Shown: positions 4,120 to 60,491 of the stretch, one piece after another
How the letters are laid out: each line of letters opens with the position of its first letter
Numbering within the stretch: the first letter of the stretch is position 1
Source: an uncultured Clostridium sp.
GTDB taxonomy: Bacteria > Bacillota_I > Bacilli_A > RF39 > UBA660
Direction: 5' to 3'
Assembly: GCA_947427095.1 (NCBI GenBank)
Contig: CANEGO010000001.1
Location: 131,428-195,427 of the forward strand
Length of the DNA: 64,000 nt
Position numbers and translations under genes: made by a program
Notes under the pieces: model-generated
The model's input: the letters and a program-made list of their open reading frames with translations, nothing else
Told to the model about the DNA's origin: nothing
The model's database searches: none

Positions 4120-4152
4120 TTTATAATATCATATACCCCCCCCCGGTCAATA
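4120..4152 (-). promoter_or_regulatory. Candidate sigma-A-type promoter with a G9 homopolymer in the -35/-10 spacer
   Basis: Minus strand reads TTGACC-GGGGGGGGG-TATATGA-TATTAT. The -35 is TTGACC and the -10 is an extended TG-n-TATTAT with a 16-nt spacer. The poly-C on the plus strand is at 4136-4144, about 50 nt upstream of the start codon. Confidence 0.5.
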
Positions 4153-4184
4153 TTTTTAAAAAAATGTGTAAAAAAAAAGTATTT

Positions 4185-4772
4185 CTACTTTGTAATTTGC
4201 AACTTAAATGGAGATTTAAAATTAGTATCTGTTTTTTCTTTATACTCAAAAAGCATATTAAGTAAAAAGTATAAAACTAAAATTAAAATAACTATCTCTA
4301 ATACATTTATAACATTTTTTAATACTGGACTAATACCAGACTTCTTATCCTTTTGATAAGAACCACAAGATTTACAATAAGTATCAGTATCAAATATTTT
4401 TTCTCCGCAACAAGAACAATATTTATTACCAGTTAATACAATCTGTTTTATAACAGTTTTTTCTTTAACTTTAGTTTGAGCTACTTCTTGTTTTTGGTTA
4501 AGTTCATAGTTATCAAACTCAAATGGTTCATAGTCCTTTAGAGTTATAGCTTCCTTAGAAACGTTATTTAAAGAAAGAGAAAGTAAAACCTTAATAAGAA
4601 AATATAAAACAAAACCACCAATAGAAATGTATAGATAAATCCTTAAGTTAGATAAAATTTGAAGCATTGTTACCGAATTATTAATAACACGATAATTAAA
4701 CACGTTTATTAAGTATATTATCGCAGCACTTATTCCAATGCCAAGAGGAACAAACGTAAGCATTTTCTTCAA
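4185..4772 (-). CDS. Membrane protein with a zinc-ribbon (CxxC...CxxC) domain
   Basis: 195 aa. The CSCCGEKIFDTDTYCKSCGSY zinc ribbon is flanked by transmembrane segments. Confidence 0.45.
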   Translation of the reverse strand: MKKMLTFVPLGIGISAAIIYLINVFNYRVINNSVTMLQILSNLRIYLYISIGGFVLYFLIKVLLSLSLNNVSKEAITLKDYEPFEFDNYELNQKQEVAQTKVKEKTVIKQIVLTGNKYCSCCGEKIFDTDTYCKSCGSYQKDKKSGISPVLKNVINVLEIVILILVLYFLLNMLFEYKEKTDTNFKSPFKLQITK

Positions 4773-4854
4773 GGCTGAACACCTCCCTTAAAAAGTCCTT
4801 TTTAAATGTCTCTATTATAATCATTTTATGAAAAAAAGCAAGTTATTATTAAAC

Positions 4855-6438
4855 TTACTCTCTGTTTAAATATTCATCATAAGTGCACATTTTATCAACG
4901 TACTTACCATCTTCCTTAAATTCAATTATACGATTTGCAACACTATTTATAAGCTCATAATCATAAGAAGAAAATAAACATACACCCCTAAAGGTTTTCA
5001 TTCCTTTATTAAGAGATGTAATTGATTCTATATCCAAGTGATTAGTAGGCTCATCTAGTATTATAACGTTAGCTTTTTTTAACATCATACGAGAAAACAT
5101 CAATCTTACTTTTTCACCGCCAGAAAGTACTCCTACCTTTTTTAAAGCTTCCTCTCCAGAAAATAGCATTCTACCCAAAAATCCTCTTAAAAACGCTTCT
5201 TCTTGTTCCTTAGAATAAGGCCTTAAAAAATCTACTAAATTAACATCTTCTTTAAAATAATCATCATGATCCTTAGGAAAGTATGAATACGAAACGGTTG
5301 TTCCCCACTTAATCGTTCCACAGTCTGGCTCTAATTCTCCAGTTATAATTTTGAAAAGCGTAGTTTTAGCAAGTTCGTTTTTTCCAACAAAAGCTACTTT
5401 ATCGGTATTATTTATGGTTAAGTTTAAGTTTTTTAAAACTACTTCTCCACCAATCGTTTTACTAACACCTTTAAGTTCTAAAACATCACGGCCTAAGTCT
5501 CTATCAATATCAAAATTAATGTATGGATATTTTCTTGATGATGCTACCATATCATCAAGTTCTATTTTTTCTAAGAGTTTCTTTCTTGATGTAGCTTGTT
5601 TAGATTTAGATGCATTCGCACTAAACCTTCTAATAAATTCTTGTAACTCTTTTATCTTATCTTCTTTCTTTTTATTAGAATCCCTCATTTGCTTTTGAAT
5701 AAGTTCGCTTGATTCTAACCAGAAATCATAATTACCAACGTACATTTTAATCTTACCATAATCAATATCAAGTGTATGAGTACATACCTTATTTAAAAAG
5801 TGTCTATCATGCGAAACAACAATTACCGTGTTTTTAAAATCTAGCAAGAAGTTCTCAAGCCATATCTTGGCACTTATATCAAGATAGTTGGTTGGTTCAT
5901 CTAAAATTAATATGTCTGGGTTGCCAAATAAAGCTTGTGCAAGCAAAACCTTAACCTTATCTTCACCAGATAAGTTTTCCATTTTATCACTATAATATGC
6001 TCTATCAAGACCAATACCAGAAAGAAGAATCTCTGCATCAGCCTCAGCTTGCCATCCATCCATCTCAGCAAACTCTGCTTCTAATTCCCCTACTCTTAAC
6101 CCATCCTCATCATTAAAATCGGGTTTAGAATATATTTCTTCCTTTTCTTTCATTATGTTATAAAGTCTTTGATTTCCCATGATTACGGTTTCAACAACAC
6201 CCTTATCATCATAAGCATTATGATCTTGTTTTAGCACTGACATCCTATCATTGTCTGTTAAGATAACTTCTCCCGTTGTAGAATCAATTTCTTTTGACAG
6301 TACCTTTAAAAAAGTAGACTTTCCTGCTCCATTAGCACCAATTACCCCGTAACAATTACCAGCGGTAAACTTTAGATTCACGTCCTTGAATAAAGTTCTT
6401 TTTCCAAAAGTTAAACTAAGGTTATTTACTTGAAGCAT
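4855..6438 (-). CDS. ABC-F family ATP-binding cassette protein (two tandem ABC domains, translation-factor type)
   Basis: 527 aa with two Walker A motifs (GANGAGKST; the second is in the C-terminal half) and an inter-domain linker. Uup/EttA/YdiF-like. Confidence 0.85.
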   Translation of the reverse strand: MLQVNNLSLTFGKRTLFKDVNLKFTAGNCYGVIGANGAGKSTFLKVLSKEIDSTTGEVILTDNDRMSVLKQDHNAYDDKGVVETVIMGNQRLYNIMKEKEEIYSKPDFNDEDGLRVGELEAEFAEMDGWQAEADAEILLSGIGLDRAYYSDKMENLSGEDKVKVLLAQALFGNPDILILDEPTNYLDISAKIWLENFLLDFKNTVIVVSHDRHFLNKVCTHTLDIDYGKIKMYVGNYDFWLESSELIQKQMRDSNKKKEDKIKELQEFIRRFSANASKSKQATSRKKLLEKIELDDMVASSRKYPYINFDIDRDLGRDVLELKGVSKTIGGEVVLKNLNLTINNTDKVAFVGKNELAKTTLFKIITGELEPDCGTIKWGTTVSYSYFPKDHDDYFKEDVNLVDFLRPYSKEQEEAFLRGFLGRMLFSGEEALKKVGVLSGGEKVRLMFSRMMLKKANVIILDEPTNHLDIESITSLNKGMKTFRGVCLFSSYDYELINSVANRIIEFKEDGKYVDKMCTYDEYLNRE

Positions 6439-6522
6439 AAAATCACGTCCTTTTCTTATATAAGTTTACTAAAGAAAATAGTAAAAAGCAAGTAAGTAAA
6501 AAAATAGCTTTTAAAGGCTATT

Positions 6523-6846
6523 TTAATCATTATAATAATGAAGCGTTAATACCACATCTTTTCTATCTTTTTCTGATGATGAAAAACCATTTGGATCAAT
6601 ATATCTTTTAGATTGTAAAGAAGGTTTATCACCATTTAGTTTAATTAAACTTGGTTTGCGTTGTCCTTTATTACTACTAAGTAATGAAGCAATTACTTTT
6701 TCATCTTTTATTAAAACTAAATCACATAATAATCTTCTAATATAAAAATCTTTTAATTCCAAATTTGTGGGTAATCTATCCATAATATATTTATCCCTTC
6801 TTGTAAGCCTTATCATTAGACATGAATAGTTTTTCCATATCAACAT
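6523..6846 (-). CDS. Hypothetical protein (possibly the downstream half of a frameshifted gene)
   Basis: 107-aa ORF that overlaps the 6791-7015 ORF by 56 nt in a different frame. Confidence 0.3.
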   Translation of the reverse strand: MLIWKNYSCLMIRLTRRDKYIMDRLPTNLELKDFYIRRLLCDLVLIKDEKVIASLLSSNKGQRKPSLIKLNGDKPSLQSKRYIDPNGFSSSEKDRKDVVLTLHYYND

Positions 6847-7015
6847 ATGTCATTCTAGGTTTGATAACATAAGATTTTTCTAACTTAAGCAAAAAATCCT
6901 TTGTCAAAAGAAATGGTTTTAAATTTACAGTTTCATCTATTTTTTGTTCTTCATAAGATTTTAAAACCTTATTATATTTAGTTAACGTATCAGTCTCAAC
7001 AGCTTTTACTCTCAT
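6791..7015 (-). CDS. Hypothetical protein (possibly the upstream half of a frameshifted gene)
   Basis: 74-aa ORF that overlaps the next ORF. Confidence 0.3.
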   Translation of the reverse strand: MRVKAVETDTLTKYNKVLKSYEEQKIDETVNLKPFLLTKDFLLKLEKSYVIKPRMTYVDMEKLFMSNDKAYKKG

Positions 7016-7103
7016 AATTTATTGTGTTCCTTTCTTGAAATCATATTATAGCATAAAACAAAAGAAAAACAACCAACTATAATTAAATGAAGTAATTAAA
7101 GGT

Positions 7104-9134
7104 CTAAGAAAGAATTTTTGGAGCATTATAAATTATTAGTTCATGTTGGCACCTAGTAGCTACAACATAAAATAGATATCTTTCGTCTTTAGTATATTTA
7201 TTATCTTTATCAGTATAAGAAATCACCGAATCAAATTCTAAACCTTTCGCGAGGTAACTTGGAACAATTACTAAGTTTTTATTAAACTCTTTATCACTAT
7301 CTTCCATTAGACTTATACCTTCTATTTTATCTTTTAATTTATCATATAATTTTATTGCTTCATCTTTACTTTTAGTAATTATCGCAAGTGATGCATATTT
7401 TTCTTTTAAAGCGTTTATATCATTTTCTATTGCGTTCATATCATCTCTAAATTTAACTGGTACGTTATTTTCTCTTCTAATCGCACTAACGTACTTTAAA
7501 CCAAGTATTTTATTAGTGTATGCTATTATTTCACCAGAGGAACGATAAGTTTTATTTAGTTCAACGTACTTGCTATTTTCGTTTAATATATCTGTTAAAA
7601 CTTCTAAAGTATCATACTTTATATATGGATTAATCGTTTGGTTAACATCTCCTAGTATCGTAAATGATGCTTTTTTAAATATCTTACTTAGTATTATATA
7701 TTGCATTTCATTATAATCTTGCGCTTCATCAACAACTATTTGCCTAATTAAGTTACTGTATGGAAAACCATTTAATAATCCTTTTAAATATATAAAGCAT
7801 AATGCATCTTCATAATTAATTTCTTTTGTGTTAAGTTTTACTGTTTCTTCTTTACCATAAGCATTTATAAATGCTTTGCTTTTATATAAATCTTCATATA
7901 TTTTCTTAAAATCAGGTTTTATATTAAGCCTTTCTTTAATTTGTTTCATAAAGCTTCTTTTTCCTTTACCATAGCTAATTCCAGTTTTATCACATAAGTG
8001 TTCAGCCATTTTTTCTATTCTTTCAAATAGTGGTAATCTATCAAACTTATCTTTTAATAAATTATTTAAGTATTTCTTTTCTATAGTTTCTATCTTAAGT
8101 TCTATATCATCTGTTATTAAAATATTTTGCTTTATTTCTTTTGCATAATTATCTATTACATCTATCATCTTTTTAGATAATTTAAACTTAACAAATTCTG
8201 GTTTATTTTCTTTTCTATCGTAAAACCTTTCAATAAAATCAGTAAAAGTTTCTACCCTTTTAAATTCCTTAGCATAACTTATGGCAAAATCATGAAAAGT
8301 AGTTTCCCCAGTGTTTTCTTCTCCAAGCTCTGGAAGTACGTTTGATATATATTCTGAAAATACATTATTAGGTGAAAAAATAAGTACGTTAGATGATTTT
8401 AAATTCTTTATTTTATATAGCAAGAACGCTATTCTATGAAGTGCTACCGACGTTTTACCAGAGCCAGCAATTCCTTGAACTATTAAATGTTTATTTGATA
8501 TGTTTCTTATTATATCGTTTTGTTCCGATTGTATGGTGTTAACAATATTTTTCATTTTATCAGAGGATTTTTCTGATAATACTTCCTGAAGGCATTCATC
8601 AACTACGTTTAAATCATTATCAAACACTCTTAACAATTTATTATTTTCTATCTTATATTGCCTTCTAAGTGACATATACCCCTTTATTTCTCCATCAGGT
8701 GCCTCATACTTACAAGGTCCTACTGGATAATCATAAAACAAACTAGCAATTGGACTTCGCCAGTCATAAACAAAATAATGTAAATCTTTTTCTACGTTAG
8801 TTAAACCTATATAAACTTTTTTTACAGCTTCATCATCTTCTTTAAAATCAACTCTTCCAAAGTATGGTGAATACTGCACTTTTAAAAGCTTTTTATAACA
8901 CTCCATTTTCATAAGCATAAAGCCTGCTTCAAGTTCTGATGACATAAGACCGGTTTGCATTTCAACTTTATCTATGCTTCCTTTATCTTCCCACAAAACC
9001 TTTCTAAACTCAGTTAATTTACTTTCTTCAACGTGAATTTCTTTTCCCAAAACATCTATTTGATTAGATATTTCCTTTGATGCATTTCGTAAGTAGCCAT
9101 TTTCTTCCTTTAACTCTTTTTCGGTTAAAGCCAT
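7104..9134 (-). CDS. helD: HelD-like UvrD-family helicase (RNA polymerase recycling / DNA helicase IV-like)
   Basis: 676 aa. Walker A motif QGIAGSGKTSVALHRIAFLL. The long N-terminal domain before the helicase core is typical of HelD. Confidence 0.7.
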   Translation of the reverse strand: MALTEKELKEENGYLRNASKEISNQIDVLGKEIHVEESKLTEFRKVLWEDKGSIDKVEMQTGLMSSELEAGFMLMKMECYKKLLKVQYSPYFGRVDFKEDDEAVKKVYIGLTNVEKDLHYFVYDWRSPIASLFYDYPVGPCKYEAPDGEIKGYMSLRRQYKIENNKLLRVFDNDLNVVDECLQEVLSEKSSDKMKNIVNTIQSEQNDIIRNISNKHLIVQGIAGSGKTSVALHRIAFLLYKIKNLKSSNVLIFSPNNVFSEYISNVLPELGEENTGETTFHDFAISYAKEFKRVETFTDFIERFYDRKENKPEFVKFKLSKKMIDVIDNYAKEIKQNILITDDIELKIETIEKKYLNNLLKDKFDRLPLFERIEKMAEHLCDKTGISYGKGKRSFMKQIKERLNIKPDFKKIYEDLYKSKAFINAYGKEETVKLNTKEINYEDALCFIYLKGLLNGFPYSNLIRQIVVDEAQDYNEMQYIILSKIFKKASFTILGDVNQTINPYIKYDTLEVLTDILNENSKYVELNKTYRSSGEIIAYTNKILGLKYVSAIRRENNVPVKFRDDMNAIENDINALKEKYASLAIITKSKDEAIKLYDKLKDKIEGISLMEDSDKEFNKNLVIVPSYLAKGLEFDSVISYTDKDNKYTKDERYLFYVVATRCQHELIIYNAPKILS

Positions 9135-43980: not shown

Positions 43981-44212
43981 TCTTAACTCGAAGAGTTCGA
44001 GCAAATTTCACTATGGAGCCTTAACGATACACGTATGCGAAAAATTATACTCCCAAGATTGATTAAATCAACTGATAATTAAATTATAGCAGATATTCCA
44101 ATTATTTCAAGTGGGAGTATGGAAAAAAATGCCTAAATATGTTATTATTATAGTAGATTTGTATCATTAAAATTATGATACTTTTTATTTTAGAAAAATT
44201 AAGGAGGATGTT

Positions 44213-45025
44213 ATGGAAACAGTAAATGGATATTTAACTTCAATACAATCAGATTTATATGTAAATGGTACAGAAAAAGATAGTATTAAGACATCTATAG
44301 ATGCAATATGTACTAGACTAGGTTATTACTTTGGAAATTCAGAACATAATATTCATAAAATTATTAAGAAAGATATCTTTGGTTCTTATAGTAGAGACAC
44401 TATGCTTTCAAGAAAGTACGATGAAGATTCGGATATTGACTTAATGATTATTTTTGAAGATGCTAATGAATATACACCGCAAACTTGCTTAAATTGGCTA
44501 AAAGAATTTGCTGATTATTGGTATCCAAATTCATTAGTAAAACAATCTTTACCAACAATAGTTATTGAATTACAAAATATAAAATTTGAATTAGTACCAG
44601 CATATAAAAATGATTATAACAATTTATATATAGCAAAAGACAGTTCAAATTGGCAATATACTAATCCTAAAGATTTAAACGATAGGATGGTTAAATTAAA
44701 TTCAAATACTAATTTTGAATTTAAAAGAATGATAAGAACAATCAAATATTGGAATGTTAAAAAGAATTATAGAAGATATAAATCATATTTTTTAGAAAAA
44801 TATTTAACAGAAAAGTTTGAAACTTCTTATATACATTGTAAAAATCAATTTGATTATTTAGATTGGGCTTTCTATCATTTAGGACATTATGATGCCAATG
44901 ATGACTATATAAGTAGTAGAATAAAATCTGCTCAGTCAAATATTACGGATGCTCAAAATTATGAAAAAAATTGCGACTATGATTCTGCAGTGAAATGTAT
45001 AAAAAAAATAATTCCAGAGACATAA
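44213..45025 (+). CDS. Pol-beta-superfamily nucleotidyltransferase, SMODS-like (candidate second-messenger synthase)
   Basis: 270 aa. Strong AAGGAGG RBS. Active-site pattern GSYSRDT...DEDSDIDL (GS-x10-DxD) plus a downstream acidic residue. Confidence 0.45.
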   Translation: METVNGYLTSIQSDLYVNGTEKDSIKTSIDAICTRLGYYFGNSEHNIHKIIKKDIFGSYSRDTMLSRKYDEDSDIDLMIIFEDANEYTPQTCLNWLKEFADYWYPNSLVKQSLPTIVIELQNIKFELVPAYKNDYNNLYIAKDSSNWQYTNPKDLNDRMVKLNSNTNFEFKRMIRTIKYWNVKKNYRRYKSYFLEKYLTEKFETSYIHCKNQFDYLDWAFYHLGHYDANDDYISSRIKSAQSNITDAQNYEKNCDYDSAVKCIKKIIPET

Positions 45026-45035
45026 GAGGTATTGT

Positions 45036-45812
45036 ATGGAAAATGAAAGAAAAGATGAAGTTCAAGAACTTTACGATAGATGCAATAGAATTTCAAAGTA
45101 TGCAGATTGGTTGTTTTTAATTAATATAGTGATTTCATTTATATTAATATTTGATTTTAAATATAGAGATATACTTATTATTATAAGTTTAATATTAACT
45201 ATTATATATGTTGTATTAGTAAATATAAATGAAATCTATTTTAATAATCTAGCAGAAAATGAAAGAAGGAAATCCCTTTTAAAAGAGTCTTTTGATGTTA
45301 ATACTACTTTAAGAGAAACAAATAAGTATTACAATAATGAAGCTGAACCATCTATTAAAAAACTTGGTCTAAATTGTTATGAAAGTGCTTTTTTTACAAA
45401 AAGAGTAGTAGATAAAATGCTTCCCAGAAATATTATTAAAATTGTTATATTTACTATAATATATATTGTTTTAATGATGAAATTAGAAAATATGGATTTA
45501 TTATTAGTAATTACACAAACATTATTTTCGGCTGAAATTATATTTTCATTTATAAAATTATGTTATTATAAATTCCAATTAGATAAAGTTTGTAACGAAT
45601 TTCAAAATATATTTCTTATAATAGGCTTAAAAAATAAGGATGTGAATGTTTTAATTTTAGATGCTACTATGGATTATGAATGCTTAAAAAACTACTGCAA
45701 GATTTCAACGTCAAGTAAAATATTTTTTGACAATAACAAGAAATGGTCAAAAGATTGGCAAAAATTGTTAAGTAAAATTAGGAAAAAATCGGAGAGGGAT
45801 AATAATGAATAA
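45036..45812 (+). CDS. Four-TM membrane protein (S-4TM-like candidate effector)
   Basis: 258 aa. Four predicted TM helices (WLFLINIVISFILIF, ILIIISLILTIIYVVLV, IIKIVIFTIIYIVLMM, LLLVITQTLFSAEIIFSFI). It lies 10 nt downstream of the NTase. Confidence 0.45.
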   Translation: MENERKDEVQELYDRCNRISKYADWLFLINIVISFILIFDFKYRDILIIISLILTIIYVVLVNINEIYFNNLAENERRKSLLKESFDVNTTLRETNKYYNNEAEPSIKKLGLNCYESAFFTKRVVDKMLPRNIIKIVIFTIIYIVLMMKLENMDLLLVITQTLFSAEIIFSFIKLCYYKFQLDKVCNEFQNIFLIIGLKNKDVNVLILDATMDYECLKNYCKISTSSKIFFDNNKKWSKDWQKLLSKIRKKSERDNNE

Positions 45813-46434
45813 AAAAATTGAAAATGCTATAAAATACTATAAGTTATGTACTAAACTAAAAGATACAATTAGGACAGGTCCTATTGTTTGGAATGCCAAA
45901 AGAGAAAGAATCGAAAGTGTTGCAGAACACATATATGGAGTTCAAATGTTAGCATTAGCTATTTATTATCAATTTGGATACAAATTAGATATTATGAAAG
46001 TTATTTATATGTTAGCAATCCATGAACTAGAAGAAATAGAAATTGGTGATTTAGCATTTTTTGAAACTACAAGAGAAGAAAAACTCGTTAAAGGCAAGGA
46101 AGCAACAGATTATATACTAAAAGATTTTCTTGGAAAAGATGAAATATCGGCATTATTAGATGAGTATAATGAAAGAACTACAGAAGAATCTAAATTTGCT
46201 TATAATTGTGATAAATTAGAATGTGATATTCAAATGAAACTGTATGATCAAGAAGGATGTTTTGATTTAAATAATCAGCCTAATAACCCAATCCTCAATA
46301 ATCCTAGTGTTAAAAAAGTATTGGATAGTGAAAAAAGCATATCTAATGCCTGGATTGAATTTGATAGAAGCAAGTATGAAGATGATAAAAACTTTATTGA
46401 AATTGTTGACTATTTAAAAGAAAAAGAAATATAA
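45805..46434 (+). CDS. HD-domain phosphohydrolase (YfbR-like 5'-deoxynucleotidase family)
   Basis: 209 aa. HD motif ESVAEHIYGVQMLALAI...AIHELEEIEIGD. Overlaps the upstream gene by 8 nt. Confidence 0.55.
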   Translation: MNKKIENAIKYYKLCTKLKDTIRTGPIVWNAKRERIESVAEHIYGVQMLALAIYYQFGYKLDIMKVIYMLAIHELEEIEIGDLAFFETTREEKLVKGKEATDYILKDFLGKDEISALLDEYNERTTEESKFAYNCDKLECDIQMKLYDQEGCFDLNNQPNNPILNNPSVKKVLDSEKSISNAWIEFDRSKYEDDKNFIEIVDYLKEKEI

Positions 46435-46451
46435 ATTAGGAGGCTAAAATT

Positions 46452-47258
46452 ATGCAAAAATTAATTATGTTAGGAACAGGACACGGCTTTGTCTATAATT
46501 GTTATAATACCTGCTTTCTGTTGCAAAATGATAATGAATACTTTTTAGTTGATACTGGAGGCAGTGCTCATATAGTACAGAATCTTGAAAAATTAAATAT
46601 AAGTTTAAATAAAATACATAACATTTTTATTTCCCATAGCCATACAGATCATATTTTAGGATTATTTTGGCTATTAAAACGAATAACTGGAATGGTTCGT
46701 TCTAAGAAGTATGATGGAAATTTAAATGTTTATTGTAATGATGAAGTAGCAAATGCTATTAAAAATATTTATCCTTATTTATTTCCAGATGTTTATGGTG
46801 AAGTGATAGATAAATATTTAAATATAGTAGTTTTAAATAATAATGAAACAAGGAAAATTACTAATAGAGAATATACTTTTTTTGATGTAATGGCAAGTAA
46901 AAATAAATTATATGGATTTGAAACAATTCTTGATAATAATAAAAAATTAGTATTTCTTGGTGATGAAACTTGTAATCCGTTGTTGTATGATAGAATCAAA
47001 AATAGTGATTATGTAATGCATGAGGCGTTTTGCTTGGATAGTGAGCAAGATATATTTAAACCTTACGAAAAAAAGCATTCAACTGTGAAATCAGTATGTG
47101 AGAATTTTACAAACTTAAATATTAGAAATTTAATTTTATATCATACAGAAGATACACATTTAGAAAACAGAAAAGGATTATATATAAAAGAGGCTCAAGA
47201 ATATTTTAATGGTAATGTTATAGTACCAAATGATTTAGAAATAATCGACTTAGATTAA
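46452..47258 (+). CDS. MBL-fold metallo-hydrolase
   Basis: 268 aa. HSHTDH (HxHxDH) motif and an MLGTGHG N-terminus. Confidence 0.7.
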   Translation: MQKLIMLGTGHGFVYNCYNTCFLLQNDNEYFLVDTGGSAHIVQNLEKLNISLNKIHNIFISHSHTDHILGLFWLLKRITGMVRSKKYDGNLNVYCNDEVANAIKNIYPYLFPDVYGEVIDKYLNIVVLNNNETRKITNREYTFFDVMASKNKLYGFETILDNNKKLVFLGDETCNPLLYDRIKNSDYVMHEAFCLDSEQDIFKPYEKKHSTVKSVCENFTNLNIRNLILYHTEDTHLENRKGLYIKEAQEYFNGNVIVPNDLEIIDLD

Positions 47259-47273
47259 GGAGATGTTTAAAAT

Positions 47274-48035
47274 ATGGATTCAAACAATAAAGTTAATAAT
47301 TATGATAAGTTTGCTGAAAAAAGACATTATGAGGTTAAAAATGGAATGAAAAAGTCATTAAGATTTGTAGAAAAACCTATGATGACATCAATGCTACCAA
47401 ATTTAGAAGGCAAAAGAATTCTTATGTTAGGATGTGGCACTGCCGAAGAAAGTGAGTTATTAAGTAGATATAATCCTAAAAAGATAACTGGAATTGATAT
47501 ATCAGAAAAATCTATTCAAGTTGCTAAAGAAAGTTATCCAAATTGTGATTTTTATGTTGGTGATATGTTAAGCCTTCCATTTAAAGATAATGAATTTGAC
47601 TTTATTTTTAGTAGTTTAGCAATTAGTCATGTTGAAGATAAAAACAAAGTCTTTAAAGAATTATATAGAGTTTTGGATAATGAAGGACAATTATTATTTT
47701 CAGTTGGTCATCCAATGAGATTTGCTACTGAAAAAATTGATTATAATGATACTTCATATCATGTTATTGGATTTGAGGCTGGTAATGATGGTAATCATAT
47801 ATTAGGAAATTATATGTCTCATACAAAGCAGGTAAATTATTTTAAAGATAATGAAGTATTAGAAGAATTCATTGCTCCACCATCATATTTTTTTGAGGCA
47901 CTTATGAAAAATAATTTTGTAGTTGAGAACTTTAAAGAATCTAGATGTATTGATGAATGTAAAGAAGTAGATGAAGCCTATTACAATAGATTTCACGAAC
48001 TACCACAATTTATGGCATTTTTGGCAAAAAAATAA
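47274..48035 (+). CDS. Class I SAM-dependent methyltransferase (type 11)
   Basis: 253 aa. SAM-binding motif I ILMLGCGTAEES and motif post-I GIDISE. Confidence 0.7.
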   Translation: MDSNNKVNNYDKFAEKRHYEVKNGMKKSLRFVEKPMMTSMLPNLEGKRILMLGCGTAEESELLSRYNPKKITGIDISEKSIQVAKESYPNCDFYVGDMLSLPFKDNEFDFIFSSLAISHVEDKNKVFKELYRVLDNEGQLLFSVGHPMRFATEKIDYNDTSYHVIGFEAGNDGNHILGNYMSHTKQVNYFKDNEVLEEFIAPPSYFFEALMKNNFVVENFKESRCIDECKEVDEAYYNRFHELPQFMAFLAKK

Positions 48036-48050
48036 AAGACAATGGCTAGG

Positions 48051-49355
48051 TTACCAATTCCTAGAATTGTCTTTTTCTTTTTGCATATCCTTATCAAAAT
48101 TATTAAGATTATTTTGTATAGATTCAGATTGTTTTCTAATTTCTTTACAGTAATTATCTAATTTGCGAAGTTCTTTGATTTTGGGTTGAATAGAATTTAT
48201 TTCAGCAAGTATATCTGATTTTTTATCTTCAGTTTTTACTCTGTGATATCGTTTCCAAAGATTTTCTCTTTTACCCATAAGGTTTTGATATTCTTCATAA
48301 TTATTTTTAGCAAATGCCTCCAAATCCTCTTTAGTTTCAATTTTATTGGCTACCATAAATCTTGTTTGTTCTGAAAATGAATCTAACTTTTTTATTTCTT
48401 TTCTTATAGAATAGGATAGATATTGTTTTGGGTATTTTTTTGGAAAGACTCCTAGAAGATAGCAATAGTATAAATATAAGCCATAGATACCTTTGTAATG
48501 ATTATTAGTCTTTGATAAATATTCTTGAAAAATAGACTTTTGAGATATAGATTTAAAAATAATTTGTTTTGAATAATATAATCGTTCATTAATTCTATTT
48601 TTTGAATAATCACTACCAAATACTTTTTCAATTCTAACTTTATCATAACCATCTCTATAAATAGTTATTATGCCATTACGAGAATAACATTTATAACCTA
48701 TCTGTTTCATTCTATCCATAACTTGTGTTAGTGTAACAGAATAATTAATAATGCTATCTAAATCATCTTTTAGGACTTTGTAATAATCGTTATCAATCAC
48801 TTTATGATTATAAGTGTTTTTATAACCAACATCCTCATTTAAAACAGAGAGTCCATATTCAGCACATAGTGAATCAGAAATGTGTCTTAGCTTGGCTAAG
48901 TTAGTTCTATTGTTATTATACTTTTTGCCAGTCTTGAATGAAACAGAGTTGACTATGAAATGATTGTGAATATGATTTGTATTCTGATGAGTAGCAACAA
49001 CCACTTCATAATCTTTAAACATTTCTTCTACAAACTTAACTCCAATTTCGTGAGCAACATCAGCTGTAACTTCTCCTTCCTTAAAAGATTGGTATCCATG
49101 ATATGCTAGAACCCCATCATTCTTACGATAATAATCTTTTGTATCTTTCATATCATCATAGGGATTATCATCATTACAATTTAAACAACTTACGTAACAG
49201 ATTTTTTCTTTTTTAAAATCATAATCTTTTTTACCTTCTAAAAAATCGTAATCAACTTTACCATAATCTTTATTGGTAGTCTTTTCTGGATTGATGATAT
49301 AATTTATAGATTGTTTTAAATTATTTTTAATACTCCATATAGATGTTGTCGCCAT
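48051..49355 (-). CDS. Mobilization relaxase (MobA/VirD2-type relaxase domain)
   Basis: 434 aa. Histidine triad motif HQNTNHIHNHFIVN and a C-terminal coiled-coil-like region. Confidence 0.6.
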   Translation of the reverse strand: MATTSIWSIKNNLKQSINYIINPEKTTNKDYGKVDYDFLEGKKDYDFKKEKICYVSCLNCNDDNPYDDMKDTKDYYRKNDGVLAYHGYQSFKEGEVTADVAHEIGVKFVEEMFKDYEVVVATHQNTNHIHNHFIVNSVSFKTGKKYNNNRTNLAKLRHISDSLCAEYGLSVLNEDVGYKNTYNHKVIDNDYYKVLKDDLDSIINYSVTLTQVMDRMKQIGYKCYSRNGIITIYRDGYDKVRIEKVFGSDYSKNRINERLYYSKQIIFKSISQKSIFQEYLSKTNNHYKGIYGLYLYYCYLLGVFPKKYPKQYLSYSIRKEIKKLDSFSEQTRFMVANKIETKEDLEAFAKNNYEEYQNLMGKRENLWKRYHRVKTEDKKSDILAEINSIQPKIKELRKLDNYCKEIRKQSESIQNNLNNFDKDMQKEKDNSRNW

Positions 49356-49421
49356 AATTAAGGTTTAGCCTTTCTTTTTTAGTGGTGGGAGTACCAGCAC
49401 GTTGCTCGCTTATAGACAACA

Positions 49422-49775
49422 TCATACATATACCAACTCTTTTAAGATAATTTCTTCTGCACAGTCTTTATAATTATTCATCAATTCCACCCATTCAATT
49501 TGATTATTTGCTTTACTTTTTTCAGTTAGTTTTTCATCATTTTTAATATAATTATCCATTAAAATTTTAAGTCTATCTTCACATTCATTACTGACTGAAA
49601 CAAGATGATTTGTTAATTCATCTTGCATAAGAAGGGTCGTATATAGACCTTTATTATGCTCTTTTAGATAATTTAATCTCAAATATCCATACTTGTTAAT
49701 TCTTTCATAATTTTGATTTTTTATAGTTAGATTTGGTAATAAATAATCTCCAACTTTTGTATAATTTAATTTCAT
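49422..49775 (-). CDS. TnpV-like small protein
   Basis: 117 aa. Its size and its position next to the large serine recombinase match TnpV of Tn4451/Tn4453-type elements. This is recalled from family knowledge and has not been searched. Confidence 0.4.
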   Translation of the reverse strand: MKLNYTKVGDYLLPNLTIKNQNYERINKYGYLRLNYLKEHNKGLYTTLLMQDELTNHLVSVSNECEDRLKILMDNYIKNDEKLTEKSKANNQIEWVELMNNYKDCAEEIILKELVYV

Positions 49776-49778
49776 TTT

Positions 49779-51924
<2,146 letters not shown>

Positions 51925-52005
51925 TCACATAACAAGGACACCTAGAATATATTGATTTTTACACGACAAAATAAATCAATATAGTGGGAGTATGTAACTC
52001 ACCAA

Positions 52006-52278
52006 TTAATGCCTTGCTATGTACTCTGATAATTCAGACAATGGGATTTTCTTTTTTAGATTCCCTATGTAAAAATGTTTCTGCTCATTGAAGAATAAGT
52101 ATAACTTATTATCAATAATCACTTTGTGTGGTTCCACATATGCGATATTCGTGTGTTCCACAATTCGTAAATAACCCTCTATGATTTTATAGGAGAGGTT
52201 ATTAAATTTGCAAGACCAATTAATTTTGTCTTTGAGTTCATCGCTCATATTGATTTTCTTTTTTACAATTTTAATCAT
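52006..52278 (-). CDS. Hypothetical protein
   Basis: 90-aa ORF lying between the Tn-like element and the partial tRNA-Gly copy. Confidence 0.35.
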   Translation of the reverse strand: MIKIVKKKINMSDELKDKINWSCKFNNLSYKIIEGYLRIVEHTNIAYVEPHKVIIDNKLYLFFNEQKHFYIGNLKKKIPLSELSEYIARH

Positions 52279-52385
52279 ACCACATCACACCTTTCTTGAC
52301 TAGACCTTTTTAGTCGACAAAAAAATCAATCATATTTCAGATTGATTTAATCATTAACGTCACTTGGTGCGACGATTTTACCTTT

Positions 52386-52429
52386 TGGAGCAAGTGATGG
52401 GAATCGAACCCACGTCTCAGCCTTGGCAA
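52386..52429 (-). repeat. 44-bp direct repeat identical to the 3' end of tRNA-Gly (island att repeat, partial tRNA)
   Basis: Positions 52386-52429 are identical to 56208-56251 (tggagcaagtgatgggaatcgaacccacgtctcagccttggcaa). Confidence 0.75.
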
Positions 52430-52558
52430 TTTAAAAAAATATGCATTAGAAACAGCGCTTTTTTGCTGATATTTTAATGAAGTTTAACTAATTTTAATCG
52501 TTTTAAAAAGGGCTTAAATTTAAAGAAAATTCAGAAAAATTAAAATAAATTTAACAAT

Positions 52559-52582
52559 TTGGCACGATTTTGGCACGATTTT
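52559..52582 (+). repeat. Tandem TTGGCACGATTTT-GGCACGATTTT repeat (left end of the island)
   Basis: Directly visible. A degenerate third copy TTGGTGCGACGATTTT lies at 52365-52380. Confidence 0.6.
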
Positions 52583-52748
52583 AATTTTAGGGTGAATTTA
52601 CCATGTGTAACAATTAAGTTACAGCTTACAAACTTTGTTTTCTTTTTAAAAACATTATATATGAATTATTGTTAAATTTTCATGGGAGTATATAAATAAT
52701 TTGAAAATTATTATATAATTTAATTAGTTTGTTTGTCGGAGGTGCTGT

Positions 52749-54440
52749 ATGAATATCATAGATAAACTTGAACAAGAAAAAATACATGTTGGTATAAGAT
52801 ACTATGGATTAGAAGACTTATCTACAGGAATAATAGTTAAAAGTTTATTAGATGGTAAAAATACTATATTAGATAACTATAAAACTAATAGTATCACAAC
52901 AATTGAAGATTATATTGATTATATTTTTCTAGATTTTATTATGAAATTTGAAGAAGTTATTCCATATGTTAAAGAGGAAAAGAGAGATGAATTCGGAGAA
53001 TTTATAGCAAACTGCAAAGTTATTTATAAAGAATATTCAATTGGTAATGTAGTTAAATACATTCAAAAAGATTATAAAAACATTTATCAATATACTGATA
53101 AAAATGAAAGTACTTATATAGCATTTGATTTAAAGAATTATACTTCTGAATTTGTTGCTGATCATTTTAATTGTTTTAATGATGATATTATGAATTATAT
53201 AATAAATGAGGAAACATATGATGTTATTGATTGTTTTAGAAAATGGCAGAAATATTTTATAAGAAAACCTGAGCAATTAATTGAGCTATTGAATGAAAAA
53301 AATATTAATAAAGTATTTTTCATGAGAGTTCAAGAAATTATTGATATAATTGATTCTTTAAAAAATAATAATAAATTTGATAAAATAGTATCAGATGCTG
53401 TAGAAATTATTTATAAAATATTAGAAACGCAGTATTTTAATCCAAACGGAGATCAGAAAATATGGCAGAGTTTCTATATGTTAAATGATTGTCTACCATT
53501 ATTTAAAAAAATGAAATCAACTTATGCCTATAGCTTAGAACAAGAATTAGAAAAACAAGAAAACTTATTTAATGAGAATTTAGTGAAAAATGGCCATAAA
53601 CAAACTATAAAGTTTGATTTAAAACCTTTTAAAGATTTCTTTGAAGATAACACAAAACCTTGGGAAGTTAGAATAGTATTTTTAACACATTCAAAGGATG
53701 AGGACGGAAAAATTGTTAGTTTTCTTGAACAAGGTGTAAAATGTGATACAAAAGCACTAACAGATGAATTGGTCAGAAAAAATCCTGGCACAGATGATTA
53801 TTTTACAAGTTGGAGATTAAGAAACTTAAGTTATTATTCATTTGAAATCAAATCAAGATTTATGACTTTAATGAATTCTAGTAATAATATTAGTGAATAT
53901 CTATCTGACATTTATGGTGAATTAAAATATATCTGCGATAATCTTAATACAAGTATGGAGATTGAATCATTAGATGAAAATATGGAGATGTTATCTCAGT
54001 TTTTAACTGATTTGTTTATAAATTATTCTAAAGATTCAGACAAATATAAAATTTCTATAAAAAACTTAATTTATGGGTGTTCTATGTTTTTATGTGGCTT
54101 TATTGAAAAAATATTAAGAATTATTTATAAAAACAGTATGAAGGATATATCTTATATTCCTGATTCAAGTATAACGTTGGGTAACTTGTTAGTTGAAAAT
54201 GATAATAATACTGAGATTTTAATTAATATATTGGGAATAGAACAAATAAAATGTCTTAGGTATTACTTGCATAAAATAGATTATTATAATGTTGTTGGGC
54301 AAAATATTAGAAATAATCTTGCACATATAAATGGTAAAACAATGAAAAACTTAAATTATGATTTGATATTAGAATTACTTTCCTATTTTACGTCTATTCT
54401 TAATAGTTGTGTTTTATACTATCAAGGGAAAAACAAATAA
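52749..54440 (+). CDS. Hypothetical 563-aa protein with a C-terminal HEPN-like Rx4H motif (Abi-like?)
   Basis: A GGAGGTG RBS is present. The C-terminus carries NIRNNLAHINGK (R-x4-H), as seen in Abi_2/HEPN families. The rest is unrecognised. Confidence 0.35.
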   Translation: MNIIDKLEQEKIHVGIRYYGLEDLSTGIIVKSLLDGKNTILDNYKTNSITTIEDYIDYIFLDFIMKFEEVIPYVKEEKRDEFGEFIANCKVIYKEYSIGNVVKYIQKDYKNIYQYTDKNESTYIAFDLKNYTSEFVADHFNCFNDDIMNYIINEETYDVIDCFRKWQKYFIRKPEQLIELLNEKNINKVFFMRVQEIIDIIDSLKNNNKFDKIVSDAVEIIYKILETQYFNPNGDQKIWQSFYMLNDCLPLFKKMKSTYAYSLEQELEKQENLFNENLVKNGHKQTIKFDLKPFKDFFEDNTKPWEVRIVFLTHSKDEDGKIVSFLEQGVKCDTKALTDELVRKNPGTDDYFTSWRLRNLSYYSFEIKSRFMTLMNSSNNISEYLSDIYGELKYICDNLNTSMEIESLDENMEMLSQFLTDLFINYSKDSDKYKISIKNLIYGCSMFLCGFIEKILRIIYKNSMKDISYIPDSSITLGNLLVENDNNTEILINILGIEQIKCLRYYLHKIDYYNVVGQNIRNNLAHINGKTMKNLNYDLILELLSYFTSILNSCVLYYQGKNK

Positions 54441-54522
54441 CTTTATTAATTATATTAAGTTTTTAATTAATTTTTATGTATAATTATTATTAAAATAATT
54501 TATTGGTAAAAGGAGTATAAGA

Positions 54523-55572
54523 ATGAATGAGATTAATATGGTTTGGTTAACTCTTAATAGAAATTGTAATTTAAGGTGTAAATGGTGTTATGCAAAAGGA
54601 GAAAAGTTTGATTTTAATCTTAAAATGGATTTTGGTTTAGCTCAAGAGCTTATTGATTTTATTAATGATTTAGGAGTTAAAGAGGTTGCTCTAATCGGTG
54701 GAGAACCAACTTGTTATAGTGAACTTAAGAAGTTAATTTCTTATATAAAATCAAAAGATATAAAAGTTTGTTTAATAACAAATGGTCTTATTTTTAGCGA
54801 TAAATCTTATTTACAAGAATTAGAAAATTTAGGTGTTGATAGTGTCAACTTTTCTATGAAGGGTTGGTCAAAAGAAAGTTACATCGTTAATACTGGTGTA
54901 GATGCTTTTGATAAAACATTAGAAGCATTAAAAAATATATCTAATTCAAATATCAATAGCATGGTTTCTTTTGTAATCAGTTATGAAAATATTGATTATC
55001 TTTTAAAAGTTGTTGAAATTACTTCAGAATGTGGAATAAAAAACTTTTACTTCTCATTTGAAAACGACTTTTCTGTGCTTGACGGTGAAATAAAAAAATA
55101 TGATGTGAATGAAATTTCTAAAATTGTTAAAGTTTTTTCTGAAAATTATGAAGAGTTAAATAGATTAACAAGGGAAAATTTTACATTACACCAATCACTT
55201 CCTCTTTGTGTTTGGAATAAGGATATAATAGAGAAAATGAGAAATAAAACCCAAATTCAAACATCTTGTATATTACTACAAAGGAGTGGACTAGTTTTTG
55301 ATACAAATGGATTTTTAATACCGTGTAATTCTATACACCAAGTCAAACTTGGTAAGTTTAAAAAAGATTTTAAAGATAAAAAAACATTTTACTCATTCTG
55401 GAATTCAAATCAGATGAATAAAATATATAATAAGTTTTGTTCTTTACCAAGTAAAACATGTAATAAGTGCAAAGATGAGTCTGTTTGTGGAGGAGGATGT
55501 CTTTCGAATTGGTATAATTATGAATTTAATGATTTATTAAATGAAAATATAATAAAAAATAATGTAAATTAA
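54523..55572 (+). CDS. Radical SAM/SPASM-domain peptide maturase
   Basis: 349 aa. CxxxCxxC cluster CNLRCKWC at the N-terminus and a C-terminal Cys-rich SPASM region (CNKCKDESVCGGGC). Confidence 0.8.
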   Translation: MNEINMVWLTLNRNCNLRCKWCYAKGEKFDFNLKMDFGLAQELIDFINDLGVKEVALIGGEPTCYSELKKLISYIKSKDIKVCLITNGLIFSDKSYLQELENLGVDSVNFSMKGWSKESYIVNTGVDAFDKTLEALKNISNSNINSMVSFVISYENIDYLLKVVEITSECGIKNFYFSFENDFSVLDGEIKKYDVNEISKIVKVFSENYEELNRLTRENFTLHQSLPLCVWNKDIIEKMRNKTQIQTSCILLQRSGLVFDTNGFLIPCNSIHQVKLGKFKKDFKDKKTFYSFWNSNQMNKIYNKFCSLPSKTCNKCKDESVCGGGCLSNWYNYEFNDLLNENIIKNNVN

Positions 55573-55641
55573 TTTTTAAGTTGTAAATTGACAGGTTAAA
55601 AAAATTAATATATTATAGTTAAAAGAAGAGGTGAATATCTT

Positions 55642-55881
55642 ATGGAAATTAATGGTGCATTACAAAAATTAAAAAAGAACGGAAGCTTACCTAAGAAGCC
55701 TTTTAGAAGTATTGGAAGTCATATCAAACTGGCTACTATAGGACCGTGTTCGGCATGTGGTGCTTGTTTCCGTGATAATGATGATGTGATTAAAAAAAGT
55801 ATAAATGACAGTTCATTTCAAAAAAGTAATAAGTTTAAACGTTGCGTTTCTGGTCCATGCTCAGCATGTGGTGCTTGCTAA
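55642..55881 (+). CDS. Cys-rich precursor peptide with a duplicated GPCSACGAC core (candidate RiPP precursor)
   Basis: 79 aa with an AGAGGTG RBS. It contains ...ATIGPCSACGACFRDNDD... and a C-terminal ...VSGPCSACGAC. It sits immediately downstream of the rSAM/SPASM gene. Confidence 0.6.
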   Translation: MEINGALQKLKKNGSLPKKPFRSIGSHIKLATIGPCSACGACFRDNDDVIKKSINDSSFQKSNKFKRCVSGPCSACGAC

Positions 55882-56093
55882 TTTAATAATAAATATTTTT
55901 AGAAAAAATATAATTTTGTAAAAAAGATAATTAAAAATTGTAAAATTTGTTTAATTATCTTTTTTAATTTGTTTAAAGCTCTAACCCTGGTTTCAGCCAT
56001 AAAATTTTAATTATATTTATATTAATTTCAACGAGTTTTAAACAAAAGTATAATAGATTATGATTAAAAAATATTAATCTATAGTTTATTATT

Positions 56094-56118
56094 TTGGCAC
56101 GATTTTTGGCACGATTTT
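56094..56118 (+). repeat. Tandem TTGGCACGATTTTT-GGCACGATTTT repeat (right end of the island)
   Basis: Directly visible. Same unit and orientation as 52559-52582. Confidence 0.6.
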
Positions 56119-56173
56119 CATTTTTGAGTAAAAAAAGGCTATTTTTTGATATTTTTGAACTTTTTAAAATATG

Positions 56174-56200
56174 AAAAAACCCTTATTTTATAAGGGTTTA
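56174..56200 (-). terminator. Terminator downstream of the tRNA-Cys/tRNA-Gly pair
   Basis: aaaccctta-tttta-taagggttt hairpin plus a U run on the minus strand, immediately 3' of tRNA-Gly. Confidence 0.5.
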
Positions 56201-56207
56201 TTTGCTA

Positions 56208-56282
56208 TGGAGCAAGTGATGGGAATCGAACCCACGTCTCAGCCTTGGCAAGGCCGCGTACTAGCCGTTGTACTACACCTGC
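56208..56282 (-). tRNA. tRNA-Gly (anticodon GCC)
   Basis: The reverse complement GCAGGTGTAGTACAACGGCTAGTACGCGGCCTTGCCAAGGCTGAGACGTGGGTTCGATTCCCATCACTTGCTCCA folds as a cloverleaf with anticodon loop UUGCCAA and an encoded CCA. Confidence 0.85.
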
Positions 56283-56286
56283 AAAA

Positions 56287-56361
56287 TGGAGGGGCCAGCC
56301 GGACTTGAACCGGCGATCGTGGAGTTGCAGTCCAATGCCTTACCAACTTGGCTATAGCCCC
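56287..56361 (-). tRNA. tRNA-Cys (anticodon GCA)
   Basis: The reverse complement GGGGCTATAGCCAAGTTGGTAAGGCATTGGACTGCAACTCCA...GGTTCAAGTCCGGCTGGCCCCTCCA folds as a cloverleaf with anticodon loop CUGCAAC. Confidence 0.85.
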
Positions 56362-59903: not shown

Positions 59904-60491
59904 CTACTTTCTATACATCTTATCATTTAATAAATTCCCTAAAAAATCATAAATAGGTAAATTAATATCATACTGTAATAATATTTGAGAAACTTTTTCT
60001 AATAAACCTTCCTTTTGGGGAATTATTATTCCCTTAAAATAATCGGTTGGAATCTTATCTTTTACCATAACTTCAGTATAATCGAAATCATTTCTTTGAG
60101 AGGTTAAATCTTCTTCTACCTTTCTGTCAATTAAAAAGATTATTTCATTTAAATCAATTGGATATTGTTTAATTTTTTTTGATAATAATTTATCCTTTAG
60201 TGTATAAATGGTAGGGTCAAATAAAGAAACAAATATTTCCTTTGTCATTCTTATGTTACCAGCAAATTTGCCAGTTACCATAATACCTAATCGCTTTAAG
60301 CTATCTTTAGAATATAAACCACCTTGTTTAATAATATTATTAAACTTCCACAACGTTTGTGGAAGTTGCAAATCATCTACTTTACCTATTCCATGTGTAA
60401 AAACATCATTATCAATTAGGATATTATATAATTCTTCAGTCATATCATAATCACCAGAAAATATATTATCATAAAAATCAAATGTTATCAA
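59904..60491 (-). CDS. Hypothetical protein
   Basis: 195-aa ORF. Confidence 0.35.
   Translation of the reverse strand: MITFDFYDNIFSGDYDMTEELYNILIDNDVFTHGIGKVDDLQLPQTLWKFNNIIKQGGLYSKDSLKRLGIMVTGKFAGNIRMTKEIFVSLFDPTIYTLKDKLLSKKIKQYPIDLNEIIFLIDRKVEEDLTSQRNDFDYTEVMVKDKIPTDYFKGIIIPQKEGLLEKVSQILLQYDINLPIYDFLGNLLNDKMYRK

Follow-up and report, generated by a model that had tools for sequence, protein, structure and literature searches.

A putative two-gene peptide-modification cassette of an unnamed radical SAM enzyme family on a tRNA-Gly island of an uncultured gut member of the Bacilli

Radical S-adenosylmethionine (SAM) enzymes with a SPASM domain that act on Cys-rich ribosomal peptides are a known kind of system. 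Sactisynthases, such as SkfB, AlbA and StsB, form thioethers from Cys to the alpha-carbon of small residues such as Gly, Ala and Ser, and typically carry a leader-binding domain, the RiPP recognition element (RRE; RiPP, peptide made on the ribosome and modified after translation). CteB, the enzyme of the SCIFF system, also bears an N-terminal RRE domain; SCIFF cassettes are not known to include an exporter, and no role of SCIFF peptides is known to us, an intracellular use being suspected. In the known ranthipeptides Asp, Glu, Asn and Thr are the acceptor residues, while the anaerobic sulfatase-maturating enzymes (anSMEs) have no RRE domain and contain eight auxiliary-cluster Cys residues. Here we describe a candidate system of this kind in 64,000 nt of low-GC (~27 %) chromosomal DNA from a spore-forming, uncultured gut member of the Bacilli (assembly GCA_947427095.1, contig CANEGO010000001.1, positions 131,428 to 195,427; hereafter the window). 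A 3.8-kb genomic island in this window carries a gene for a 349-aa radical SAM enzyme, followed by a gene for a 79-aa peptide with two copies of the nonapeptide GPCSACGAC, and the enzyme family, the peptide leader and the cores are all without a name in NCBIfam, Pfam or PADLOC. On balance, we favour the view that the two genes represent a functional two-gene RiPP-type peptide-modification cassette of a widespread, unnamed family of RRE-less, SPASM-type radical SAM enzymes.

Both open reading frames (ORFs) lie where an earlier reading of the bare DNA (the sequence-only reading) had placed them (Table 1), and the spacing from the enzyme stop codon to the peptide ATG is 69 nt. The peptide contains seven Cys residues, i.e. 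three in each core and Cys68 in the linker; besides Cys, its cores consist only of Gly, Pro, Ser and Ala, without any Asp, Glu, Asn or Thr. Comparison of the DNA of both core copies shows five differences, all of them at third-codon positions and all synonymous (5 synonymous/0 non-synonymous), an outcome expected by chance for five random substitutions with P ~3e-4 (200,000 simulations). Therefore, protein-level selection keeps both copies, the core duplication is not recent, and purifying selection acts on the peptide gene. The gene also has its own predicted expression signals, in that a promoter-like site and a ribosome-binding site precede it and a terminator-like hairpin follows. The promoter-like site lies in the gap between the two genes and has the top sigma-70-like score (11 of 12) across 52.3-56.3 kb, and the hairpin has a predicted dG of -14 kcal/mol (z -3.66 vs shuffled sequences). 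Moreover, an S-I-(N/G) motif precedes each core of the window peptide (residues 23-25 and 53-55) and is found as HSINS in the leaders of single-core relatives, so that the duplicated unit probably includes this stretch as well.

A sequence search with the window peptide returned only the peptide itself, and homologous peptides were therefore located through the genomic neighbours of the enzyme. While a word-indexed search gave ~72 close enzyme homologues, an exhaustive profile search returned 662 representatives of 50 %-identity clusters with E <=1e-30 among 1.84 billion, from human and animal gut Firmicutes and from Patescibacteria (the candidate phyla radiation, CPR). For further analysis, 80 loci each were fetched from genomes and from metagenomes, together with several exact-match loci; they are labelled here with L-numbers. 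In 103 of the 140 loci having a full-length enzyme homologue, an adjacent ORF on the same strand had four or more Cys within 20 aa, as against a chance expectation of ~0.11 per locus, derived from the rest of the same loci; when three Cys within 12 aa were required, a Cys-dense small same-strand ORF stood beside the enzyme in 90 of the 108 loci whose flanks were complete. These neighbourhoods show that the enzyme and a predicted Cys-dense peptide are co-inherited across the family, which bears out the maturase-precursor pairing proposed in the sequence-only reading, as does the conservation of leader and core in the nearest relatives.

The type of core follows the relatedness of each enzyme to that of the window. 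At 62-68 % enzyme identity (L061, L082 and L031) the peptide has 72-78 aa, is encoded 3' of the enzyme gene, starts with a leader of the form MxIExAL..L.KNG.LP and ends with G(P/S).C.ACGAC; the core is duplicated in L061 and L082, and the first core is degenerate in L031. At 50-56 % identity (L246-L251) the peptide has 43-48 aa, is encoded 5' of the enzyme gene and reads M.IEKALELLKK.G.LP.EEY.SINS....GAPCGACGAC up to its stop codon. Further away, the peptides consist of (ACG)n repeats in Lachnospiraceae (42-50 % identity), for which no NCBIfam peptide model matched, of CDCDCNC-type runs in other Firmicutes (43 % or lower) and of LYKG...ICDCCGDGDDCCGFN in Patescibacteria (about 30 %). A cultured isolate, Pumilibacter muris CLA-AA-M08 (L025), carries a family member of 35 % identity together with a CDCDC-type peptide. 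Alignment of the nearest clade (50-68 % identity) reveals a conserved leader, M-x-I-E-x-A-L-x-x-L-K-K-x-G-x-L-P, and a conserved core, G-x-P-C-x-A-C-G-A-C, normally at the extreme C-terminus; the C-terminal C-x-ACGAC is retained throughout, both by the four members of the duplicated-core clade and by every single-core relative. As read from this alignment, the window peptide corresponds to an ordinary single-core precursor that has gained a linker and a further core. The general marks of a RiPP pair are thus all discernible in the sequences: adjacency and leader are conserved, the core varies and the small ORF has expression signals of its own. We regard it as very probable that the enzyme and the peptide form a genuine enzyme-substrate pair.

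The enzyme belongs to the radical SAM superfamily, as seen from its match to the Pfam model Radical_SAM (PF04055; 85 bits vs a cut-off of 29.5) and from its cluster motif CX3CX2C (C15-x3-C19-x2-C22), the triad of which is invariant in an alignment of 44 homologues. Seven C-terminal Cys residues (C229, C249, C268, C313, C316, C322 and C326) are likewise invariant in these 44 sequences and include the arrangements CX13GX4C (C249-C268) and CX2CX5CX3C (C313-C326); the SPASM reference motif, with two auxiliary clusters, is CX9-15GX4C ... CX2CX5CX3C ... C. Because the radical SAM motif begins as early as residue 15, there is no N-terminal RRE leader-binding domain, and neither a PqqD/RRE match in the enzyme nor a separate RRE gene in the island was found by ORF analysis and Pfam scan. 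The nearest solved proteins by sequence are SkfB (78 bits), CteB (76 bits), Tes, SuiB (68 bits, full length), PqqE and MoaA, of which SkfB and CteB are thioether-forming and Tes is a lipid synthase. An AlphaFold model of the enzyme (pLDDT 92.1) superposed in Foldseek on BlsE, SuiB and anSME over ~350 columns (TM-score ~0.68) and on SkfB over ~290 columns.

Assignment of the system to a named family was rejected, since scans of the enzyme, the window peptide and seven related peptides with NCBIfam, Pfam and PADLOC gave no such family above cut-off, in line with the claim of the sequence-only reading that the repeat unit fits no named family. In fact, the NCBIfam scores of the enzyme are far below the respective cut-offs for MoaA (89 vs 325 bits), StsB (82.7 vs 625), NirJ (79 vs 515), PapB (64 vs 340), SkfB (57.9 vs 300) and the ACGX system (51 vs 400), and a selenoprotein model, TrsS, gave a weak match of 59 bits. 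Weak matches that run nearly end to end were obtained with the profiles of PapB, the ACGX system, ScmE/F and the GeoRSP maturase (325-358 positions), and the best E-value with the PapB model among the 44 relatives was 6e-22. For the window peptide, there was no match to an NCBIfam or Pfam family, nor to SCIFF. Identity with viperin was also rejected, the viperin matches being generic ones to the radical SAM core. The source annotations of the enzyme homologues read just 'radical SAM protein'; NCBIfam release 20, Pfam and PADLOC do not cover the enzyme family, the leader or the cores, and full-text searches of the literature yielded no description of any of the three.

Comparison with the individual systems gives a similar picture. 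Like the window locus, the PapB/freyrasin system and the CXXX-repeat ranthipeptides combine a radical SAM/SPASM maturase with repeated short Cys motifs, the PapB profile aligns almost as a whole (enzyme residues 5-329 to positions 3-319 of 330) and many relatives of the window enzyme share Cys-Asp-rich cores with PapB. However, beyond the low score, the window core has C-x-x-C instead of C-x3-D and no Asp acceptor, and the leader is different. SCIFF/CteB (thermocellin) is, as in the window, a two-gene cassette of a radical SAM/SPASM enzyme and a Cys-rich peptide from anaerobic Firmicutes (PMC10114670). The match to CteB, the second best among solved sequences, is nevertheless limited to the radical SAM core (enzyme residues 5-167) and has CteB residue 97 as its first position, in agreement with CteB being extended N-terminally relative to the window enzyme; in addition, the window cassette is strain-specific island cargo and not a core-genome gene. 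Taken together, the window pair shows neither a ranthipeptide family match, by hidden Markov model (HMM) or SCIFF precursor, nor an Asp, Glu, Asn or Thr acceptor near Cys. The ACGX system (NCBIfam TIGR04340), itself uncharacterized to our knowledge, aligns from end to end (enzyme residues 11-324 to profile positions 9-318 of 341), and the A-C-G repeats of its peptides recall both the ...ACGAC of the window and the (ACG)n peptides of Lachnospiraceae, but no member of the window family scores higher than the window enzyme and no ACGX peptide match was found.

By analogy, it is sactisynthase chemistry that best fits the window core. SkfB is the best solved match and StsB the second-best NCBIfam match; yet the sactisynthase matches (58-83 bits vs cut-offs of 300-625) cover the radical SAM core only and begin ~95-110 residues into SkfB and the StsB profile, and the window enzyme has neither such an N-terminal extension nor an RRE. 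Thus, both the family HMM match and the N-terminal RRE that mark sactipeptide maturases are absent, the window core is far shorter than known sactipeptides, and no transporter or immunity gene accompanies the cassette. Of the previously proposed sacti- or ranthipeptide-like maturase, the RiPP-type pair stands, whereas a family-level grouping with sactisynthases, PapB, SCIFF or ACGX does not, the scores being far under the cut-offs. The anSMEs, which act on Cys in a peptide (PMC10114670), are of similar size and among the best structural matches, but differ in that the window family conserves seven auxiliary Cys residues instead of eight. No sulfatase was detected in the island or the scanned flanking genes, and none recurs among the conserved neighbours of 60 loci. 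An anSME reading, which the sequence-only reading had named as an example of what would refute its proposal, was rejected: besides the absence of a sulfatase from the genes scanned, the C-x-P/A-x-R motif is lacking and the listed HMM matches include no anSME model, which leaves a likeness of fold without a family-level match.

How the pair might work can be outlined from these comparisons. The leader helix would be bound directly by the enzyme, which would cleave SAM to the 5'-deoxyadenosyl radical, and this radical would abstract a hydrogen from a core residue, in the window clade most plausibly at the alpha-carbon of Gly, Ala or Ser. A Cys sulfur would then capture the carbon radical with the assistance of the auxiliary Fe-S clusters, and thioether rings would result, up to three per core and six per two-core precursor. 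Known acceptors of radical SAM thioether enzymes are found in Cys-Asp links for PapB, in Cys-Asn links for NxxcB and at alpha-carbons for sactipeptides (PMC11002830, PMC10114670). Across the family, the residues between close Cys are Asp (33 %), Gly (13 %), Asn (10 %), Ala (6 %) and Ser (5 %), all of which belong to these acceptors and thereby count in favour of thioethers. Since Gly, Ala, Ser and Pro are the only acceptors possible in the window clade, a sactionine-type link to an alpha-carbon would be more plausible there than a side-chain link, while in the Asp/Asn-rich relatives either an alpha-carbon or a side-chain thioether is possible. As anticipated by the sequence-only reading, the ORFs and the Pfam and PADLOC scans revealed no protease or exporter gene within the island, and none is conserved with the cassette in the window clade; therefore, the product would be used inside the cell, or be trimmed and exported by general host functions. 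Overall, we consider it likely that the modification is directed at Cys, while for a thioether in particular, judged by analogy, the chances are slightly less than even.

Several observations weigh against the interpretation as a SPASM-type, thioether-forming RiPP cassette. The match of the enzyme to the Pfam SPASM model (PF13186) has 15.2 bits and thereby remains under the cut-off of 21.5, the canonical final Cys of the SPASM motif is absent from the family, with the upstream C229 conserved instead, and none of the 44 relatives reaches an NCBIfam cut-off (best E-value 1e-29). As modelled, the fold is equally near to anSME, which converts Cys to formylglycine, and to BlsE as to thioether synthases. 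A side-chain thioether of the PapB, CteB or NxxcB type is not directly transferable, because the window core lacks Asp, Glu, Asn and Thr. Finally, C-x-x-C-G-A-C is a classic cluster-binding spacing of ferredoxins, so that the conservation of Cys could reflect metal binding and not crosslinking.

Among the alternatives, a real pair with another Cys-directed radical chemistry, i.e. a thio-oxazole as for SbtM/TrsS, formylglycine as for anSME, or a new sulfur or carbon crosslink, fares best, albeit as an unlikely one. The equal closeness of the enzyme fold to anSME (TM-score ~0.68), BlsE and SkfB is compatible with it, as is the weak TrsS match standing beside those to thioether families; and with Gly, Pro, Ser and Ala as the sole other residues of the core, the modification may fall on Cys itself. 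SbtM and anSME both modify Cys inside peptides (PMC11002830, PMC10114670). However, all matches stay under the cut-offs for anSME and TrsS, neither a sulfatase nor selenocysteine machinery is encoded nearby, the sulfatase motif C-x-P/A-x-R is missing, and most relatives have cores rich in Asp/Asn, which are similar to known thioether acceptors. Somewhat less probable still is the bolder idea that the family makes no ordinary sacti- or ranthipeptides and that the RRE-less SPASM enzyme turns the ferredoxin-like C-x-x-C-G-A-C tail (CDCDC in relatives) into a new intracellular product, be it a tiny sulfur cage with several bridges, a site on the peptide for a metal or an Fe-S cluster, or a cofactor, with exporter-less two-gene cassettes having spread from gut Firmicutes to Patescibacteria, partly on mobile islands.

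We consider it improbable that the peptide serves within the cell to bind a metal or an Fe-S cluster, or as the precursor of a cofactor, and is not a secreted antimicrobial, with the radical SAM enzyme building or tailoring its site. The resemblance of the CSACGAC spacing to [4Fe-4S] motifs of ferredoxins would suit this explanation, as would the metallothionein-like cores of relatives, the location of the L031 cassette after a suf operon, and the strictly two-gene nature of the duplicated-core clade, which occurs in varied chromosomal contexts without an exporter, protease or immunity gene. Yet a leader combined with a variable core is typical of modified peptides, the Patescibacteria loci include an HExxH protein resembling a leader peptidase and the single-core loci a DUF4760 membrane protein, and we know of no experimental precedent for a radical SAM enzyme that builds a peptide metal site. 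Lastly, the lack of a database family for the peptide, its self-match only, and the top HMM scores of the enzyme for non-peptide enzymes of the MoaA and NirJ type would agree with a chance frame beside an enzyme acting on a non-peptide substrate or a distant protein, but this explanation is very improbable and strongly disfavoured in view of the solely synonymous differences between the core copies, the homologous peptides adjoining homologous enzymes in unrelated contexts, the adjacency far over chance across the family, the expression signals predicted for the ORF and the distance of the MoaA and NirJ scores from their cut-offs.

Clustering of the neighbouring ORFs of 60 loci revealed no family-wide shared gene apart from the enzyme. 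L061, L082 and L031 are bare two-gene cassettes, each in a different chromosomal setting. In L031 the cassette lies directly after the suf operon for Fe-S assembly, and in L061 it adjoins a divergent ttcA-like gene (judged by eye), with an apparent htrA-type serine protease gene 0.6 kb away. In L082, the closest relative (68 %), the cassette (4150-7329) begins 65 nt 3' of spoVAC-spoVAD-spoVAEB on the same strand, a position which hints at forespore expression. The single-core loci L246-L251, on the other hand, are three-gene units of a DUF4760 membrane protein, the 43-48-aa peptide and the radical SAM enzyme (e.g. L251, 2367-4050), several of which are located near ParA/ParB genes or a transposase-type helix-turn-helix gene; the DUF4760 protein had no PADLOC match, and we know of no function for DUF4760. 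In 13 loci, nearly all from Patescibacteria or unclassified metagenome-assembled genomes (e.g. L029, L034, L036, L037 and L041), the peptide gene is followed by that of a ~195-aa HExxH protein with weak M78/M76 matches, which is probably a candidate leader peptidase specific to its branch. In L018 and L019 (both 7034-8128), a Cys-rich CNCDCDC segment, which elsewhere normally makes up a small peptide, instead begins a protein of 364 aa that has leucine-rich repeats of the BspA type, and this fusion suggests that the enzyme may be able to modify a full-size protein.

The island itself is bounded by perfect 44-nt direct repeats derived from the 3' end of a tRNA-Gly(GCC) gene. Within 52430-56207, ORF and Pfam analysis revealed no recombinase or integrase, the serine recombinase at 50008-51879 belonging to an adjacent, Tn4451-like transposon. 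Conspecific contigs from other samples with flanks ~99.3 % identical to those of the window show how variable this site is: the island is absent in L256, L257 and L262, with the tRNA-Gly gene joined straight to window position 44019 in L256 and L262 (44020-56207 being wholly missing) and to position 52385 in L257, where the transposon is present and the 3.8-kb island missing, while L255 has a different insert after the tRNA-Gly gene. Thus, comparison of the tRNA-Gly(GCC) 3' end (window 56208-56361) with these four contigs gives four arrangements, i.e. empty, transposon only, transposon plus island, and other insert, which identify 52430-56207 as an independently acquired, integrase-less island. 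Of the hallmarks of a tRNA-integrated island, tRNA-derived repeats and an empty site are found and an integrase of its own is not, so that by its sequence the element resembles a cis-mobilisable element at an integration hot spot. A tandem TTTGGCACGATTTT motif is located in direct orientation just inside both island ends (52559-52582 and 56093-56118), and a recombinase provided in trans may bind to these motifs. The exact enzyme sequence was found on one contig and the exact peptide sequence on two, vs 27 contigs with the adjacent phosphoribosyl pyrophosphate (PRPP) synthetase, and the cassette is therefore strain-specific. A phage origin was rejected, as IMG/VR holds just one true family member (L166), and so was a plasmid origin: the island DNA is unmatched in PLSDB, and plasmid-borne proteins have at most ~27 % identity, or ~22 % if full-length.

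The third gene of the island encodes a 563-aa protein, which the sequence-only reading had suggested as a possible processing partner. This suggestion does not hold. The gene stands beside the cassette in none of the related loci, and the 35 homologues of the protein, which have no annotated domain, come from a conjugative-element locus and from another locus that encodes regulators and DUF proteins, with no radical SAM gene at either; moreover, the model is all-helical and has no protease-like structural match. The protein is therefore unrelated island cargo and not a processing enzyme. Its invariant N-x-R-N-x-x-A-H motif (residues 519-526) resembles that of HEPN RNases, but the assignment is unconfirmed because model confidence is low in the motif region.

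The adjacent transposon is flanked by TGGAGC and carries, besides the genes of a cyclic oligonucleotide-based antiphage signalling system (CBASS) listed in Table 1, genes for HD, metallo-beta-lactamase and SAM-methyltransferase proteins. The window also encodes LeuRS, GlmS, RecG, a GerA-type germination operon and the PRPP synthetase, and its QueH falls into a common 90 %-identity cluster with QueH of Clostridium sp. CAG:594. Between the genes for a P-type ATPase and queH, a gene at 59904-60491 encodes a 195-aa protein with a weak DarT-like match; this position is variable as well, as other conspecific contigs (L255-L262) encode an unrelated protein of 701-783 aa there.

Table 1. Coordinates of the cassette, the island and the adjacent transposon in the window, with the basis of each assignment or a remark
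Feature	Position	Strand	Basis or remark
Radical SAM enzyme, 349 aa, SPASM-type C-terminal domain, without RRE; presumed peptide maturase	54523..55572	+	ORF, Pfam, model
Precursor peptide gene, 79 aa, MEINGALQKLKKNGSLPKKPFRSIGSHIKLATIGPCSACGACFRDNDDVIKKSINDSSFQKSNKFKRCVSGPCSACGAC	55642..55881	+	ORF call, read from sequence
Peptide leader	residues 1-33		
Core copy 1, GPCSACGAC, internal, residues 34-42	55741..55767	+	aligns with C-terminal core of 43-48-aa single-core precursors
Peptide linker	residues 43-70		
Core copy 2, GPCSACGAC, residues 71-79 (extreme C-terminus), stop codon immediately after	55852..55878	+	sequence
Candidate sigma-70-like promoter TTGACA-17-TATTAT, for peptide gene	55588..55616	+	consensus match only
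Ribosome-binding site GAAGAGGTG; GAGG ends 10 nt 5' of ATG	55625..55633	+	read from sequence
Terminator-like AT-rich hairpin, then U-run	55919..55966	+	RNA fold
563-aa all-helical protein, function unassigned; island co-cargo, not conserved cassette partner	52749..54440	+	
3.8-kb genomic island without integrase; 563-aa gene, radical SAM gene and peptide gene	52430..56207		direct repeats, empty sites
Left direct repeat, displaced copy of tRNA-Gly 3' 44 nt	52386..52429		repeat and tRNA search
Right direct repeat, within intact tRNA-Gly(GCC)	56208..56251		repeat and tRNA search
Intact tRNA-Gly(GCC) gene	56208-56282	minus	tRNA search
Tn4451-like mobilisable transposon beside island	44020-52385		flanked by TGGAGC at 44014-44019 and 52386-52391
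Large serine recombinase of transposon	50008-51879	minus	
TnpV of transposon	49422-49775	minus	
MobA-type relaxase of transposon	48051-49355	minus	
Transposon cargo: CBASS cyclase	44213-45025		
Transposon cargo: four-transmembrane (4TM) effector	45036-45812		

If the pair works as proposed, it would represent a new family of radical SAM enzymes that modify peptides, in which the substrate is recognized without an RRE domain and the cores are unusually small, with eight or nine residues and three Cys. As a two-gene cassette, it would be an easy target for co-expression, with a view to new crosslink chemistry and constrained mini-peptides; the duplicated core of the window peptide offers a natural test of whether one leader directs two cores, and the isolate Pumilibacter muris CLA-AA-M08 is a possible experimental model for the family. 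Regarding the organism, the location of the cassette on a strain-specific island beside a transposon with CBASS anti-phage genes suggests an accessory and not a housekeeping function, and a role in competition, signalling or defence may be envisaged, though speculatively.

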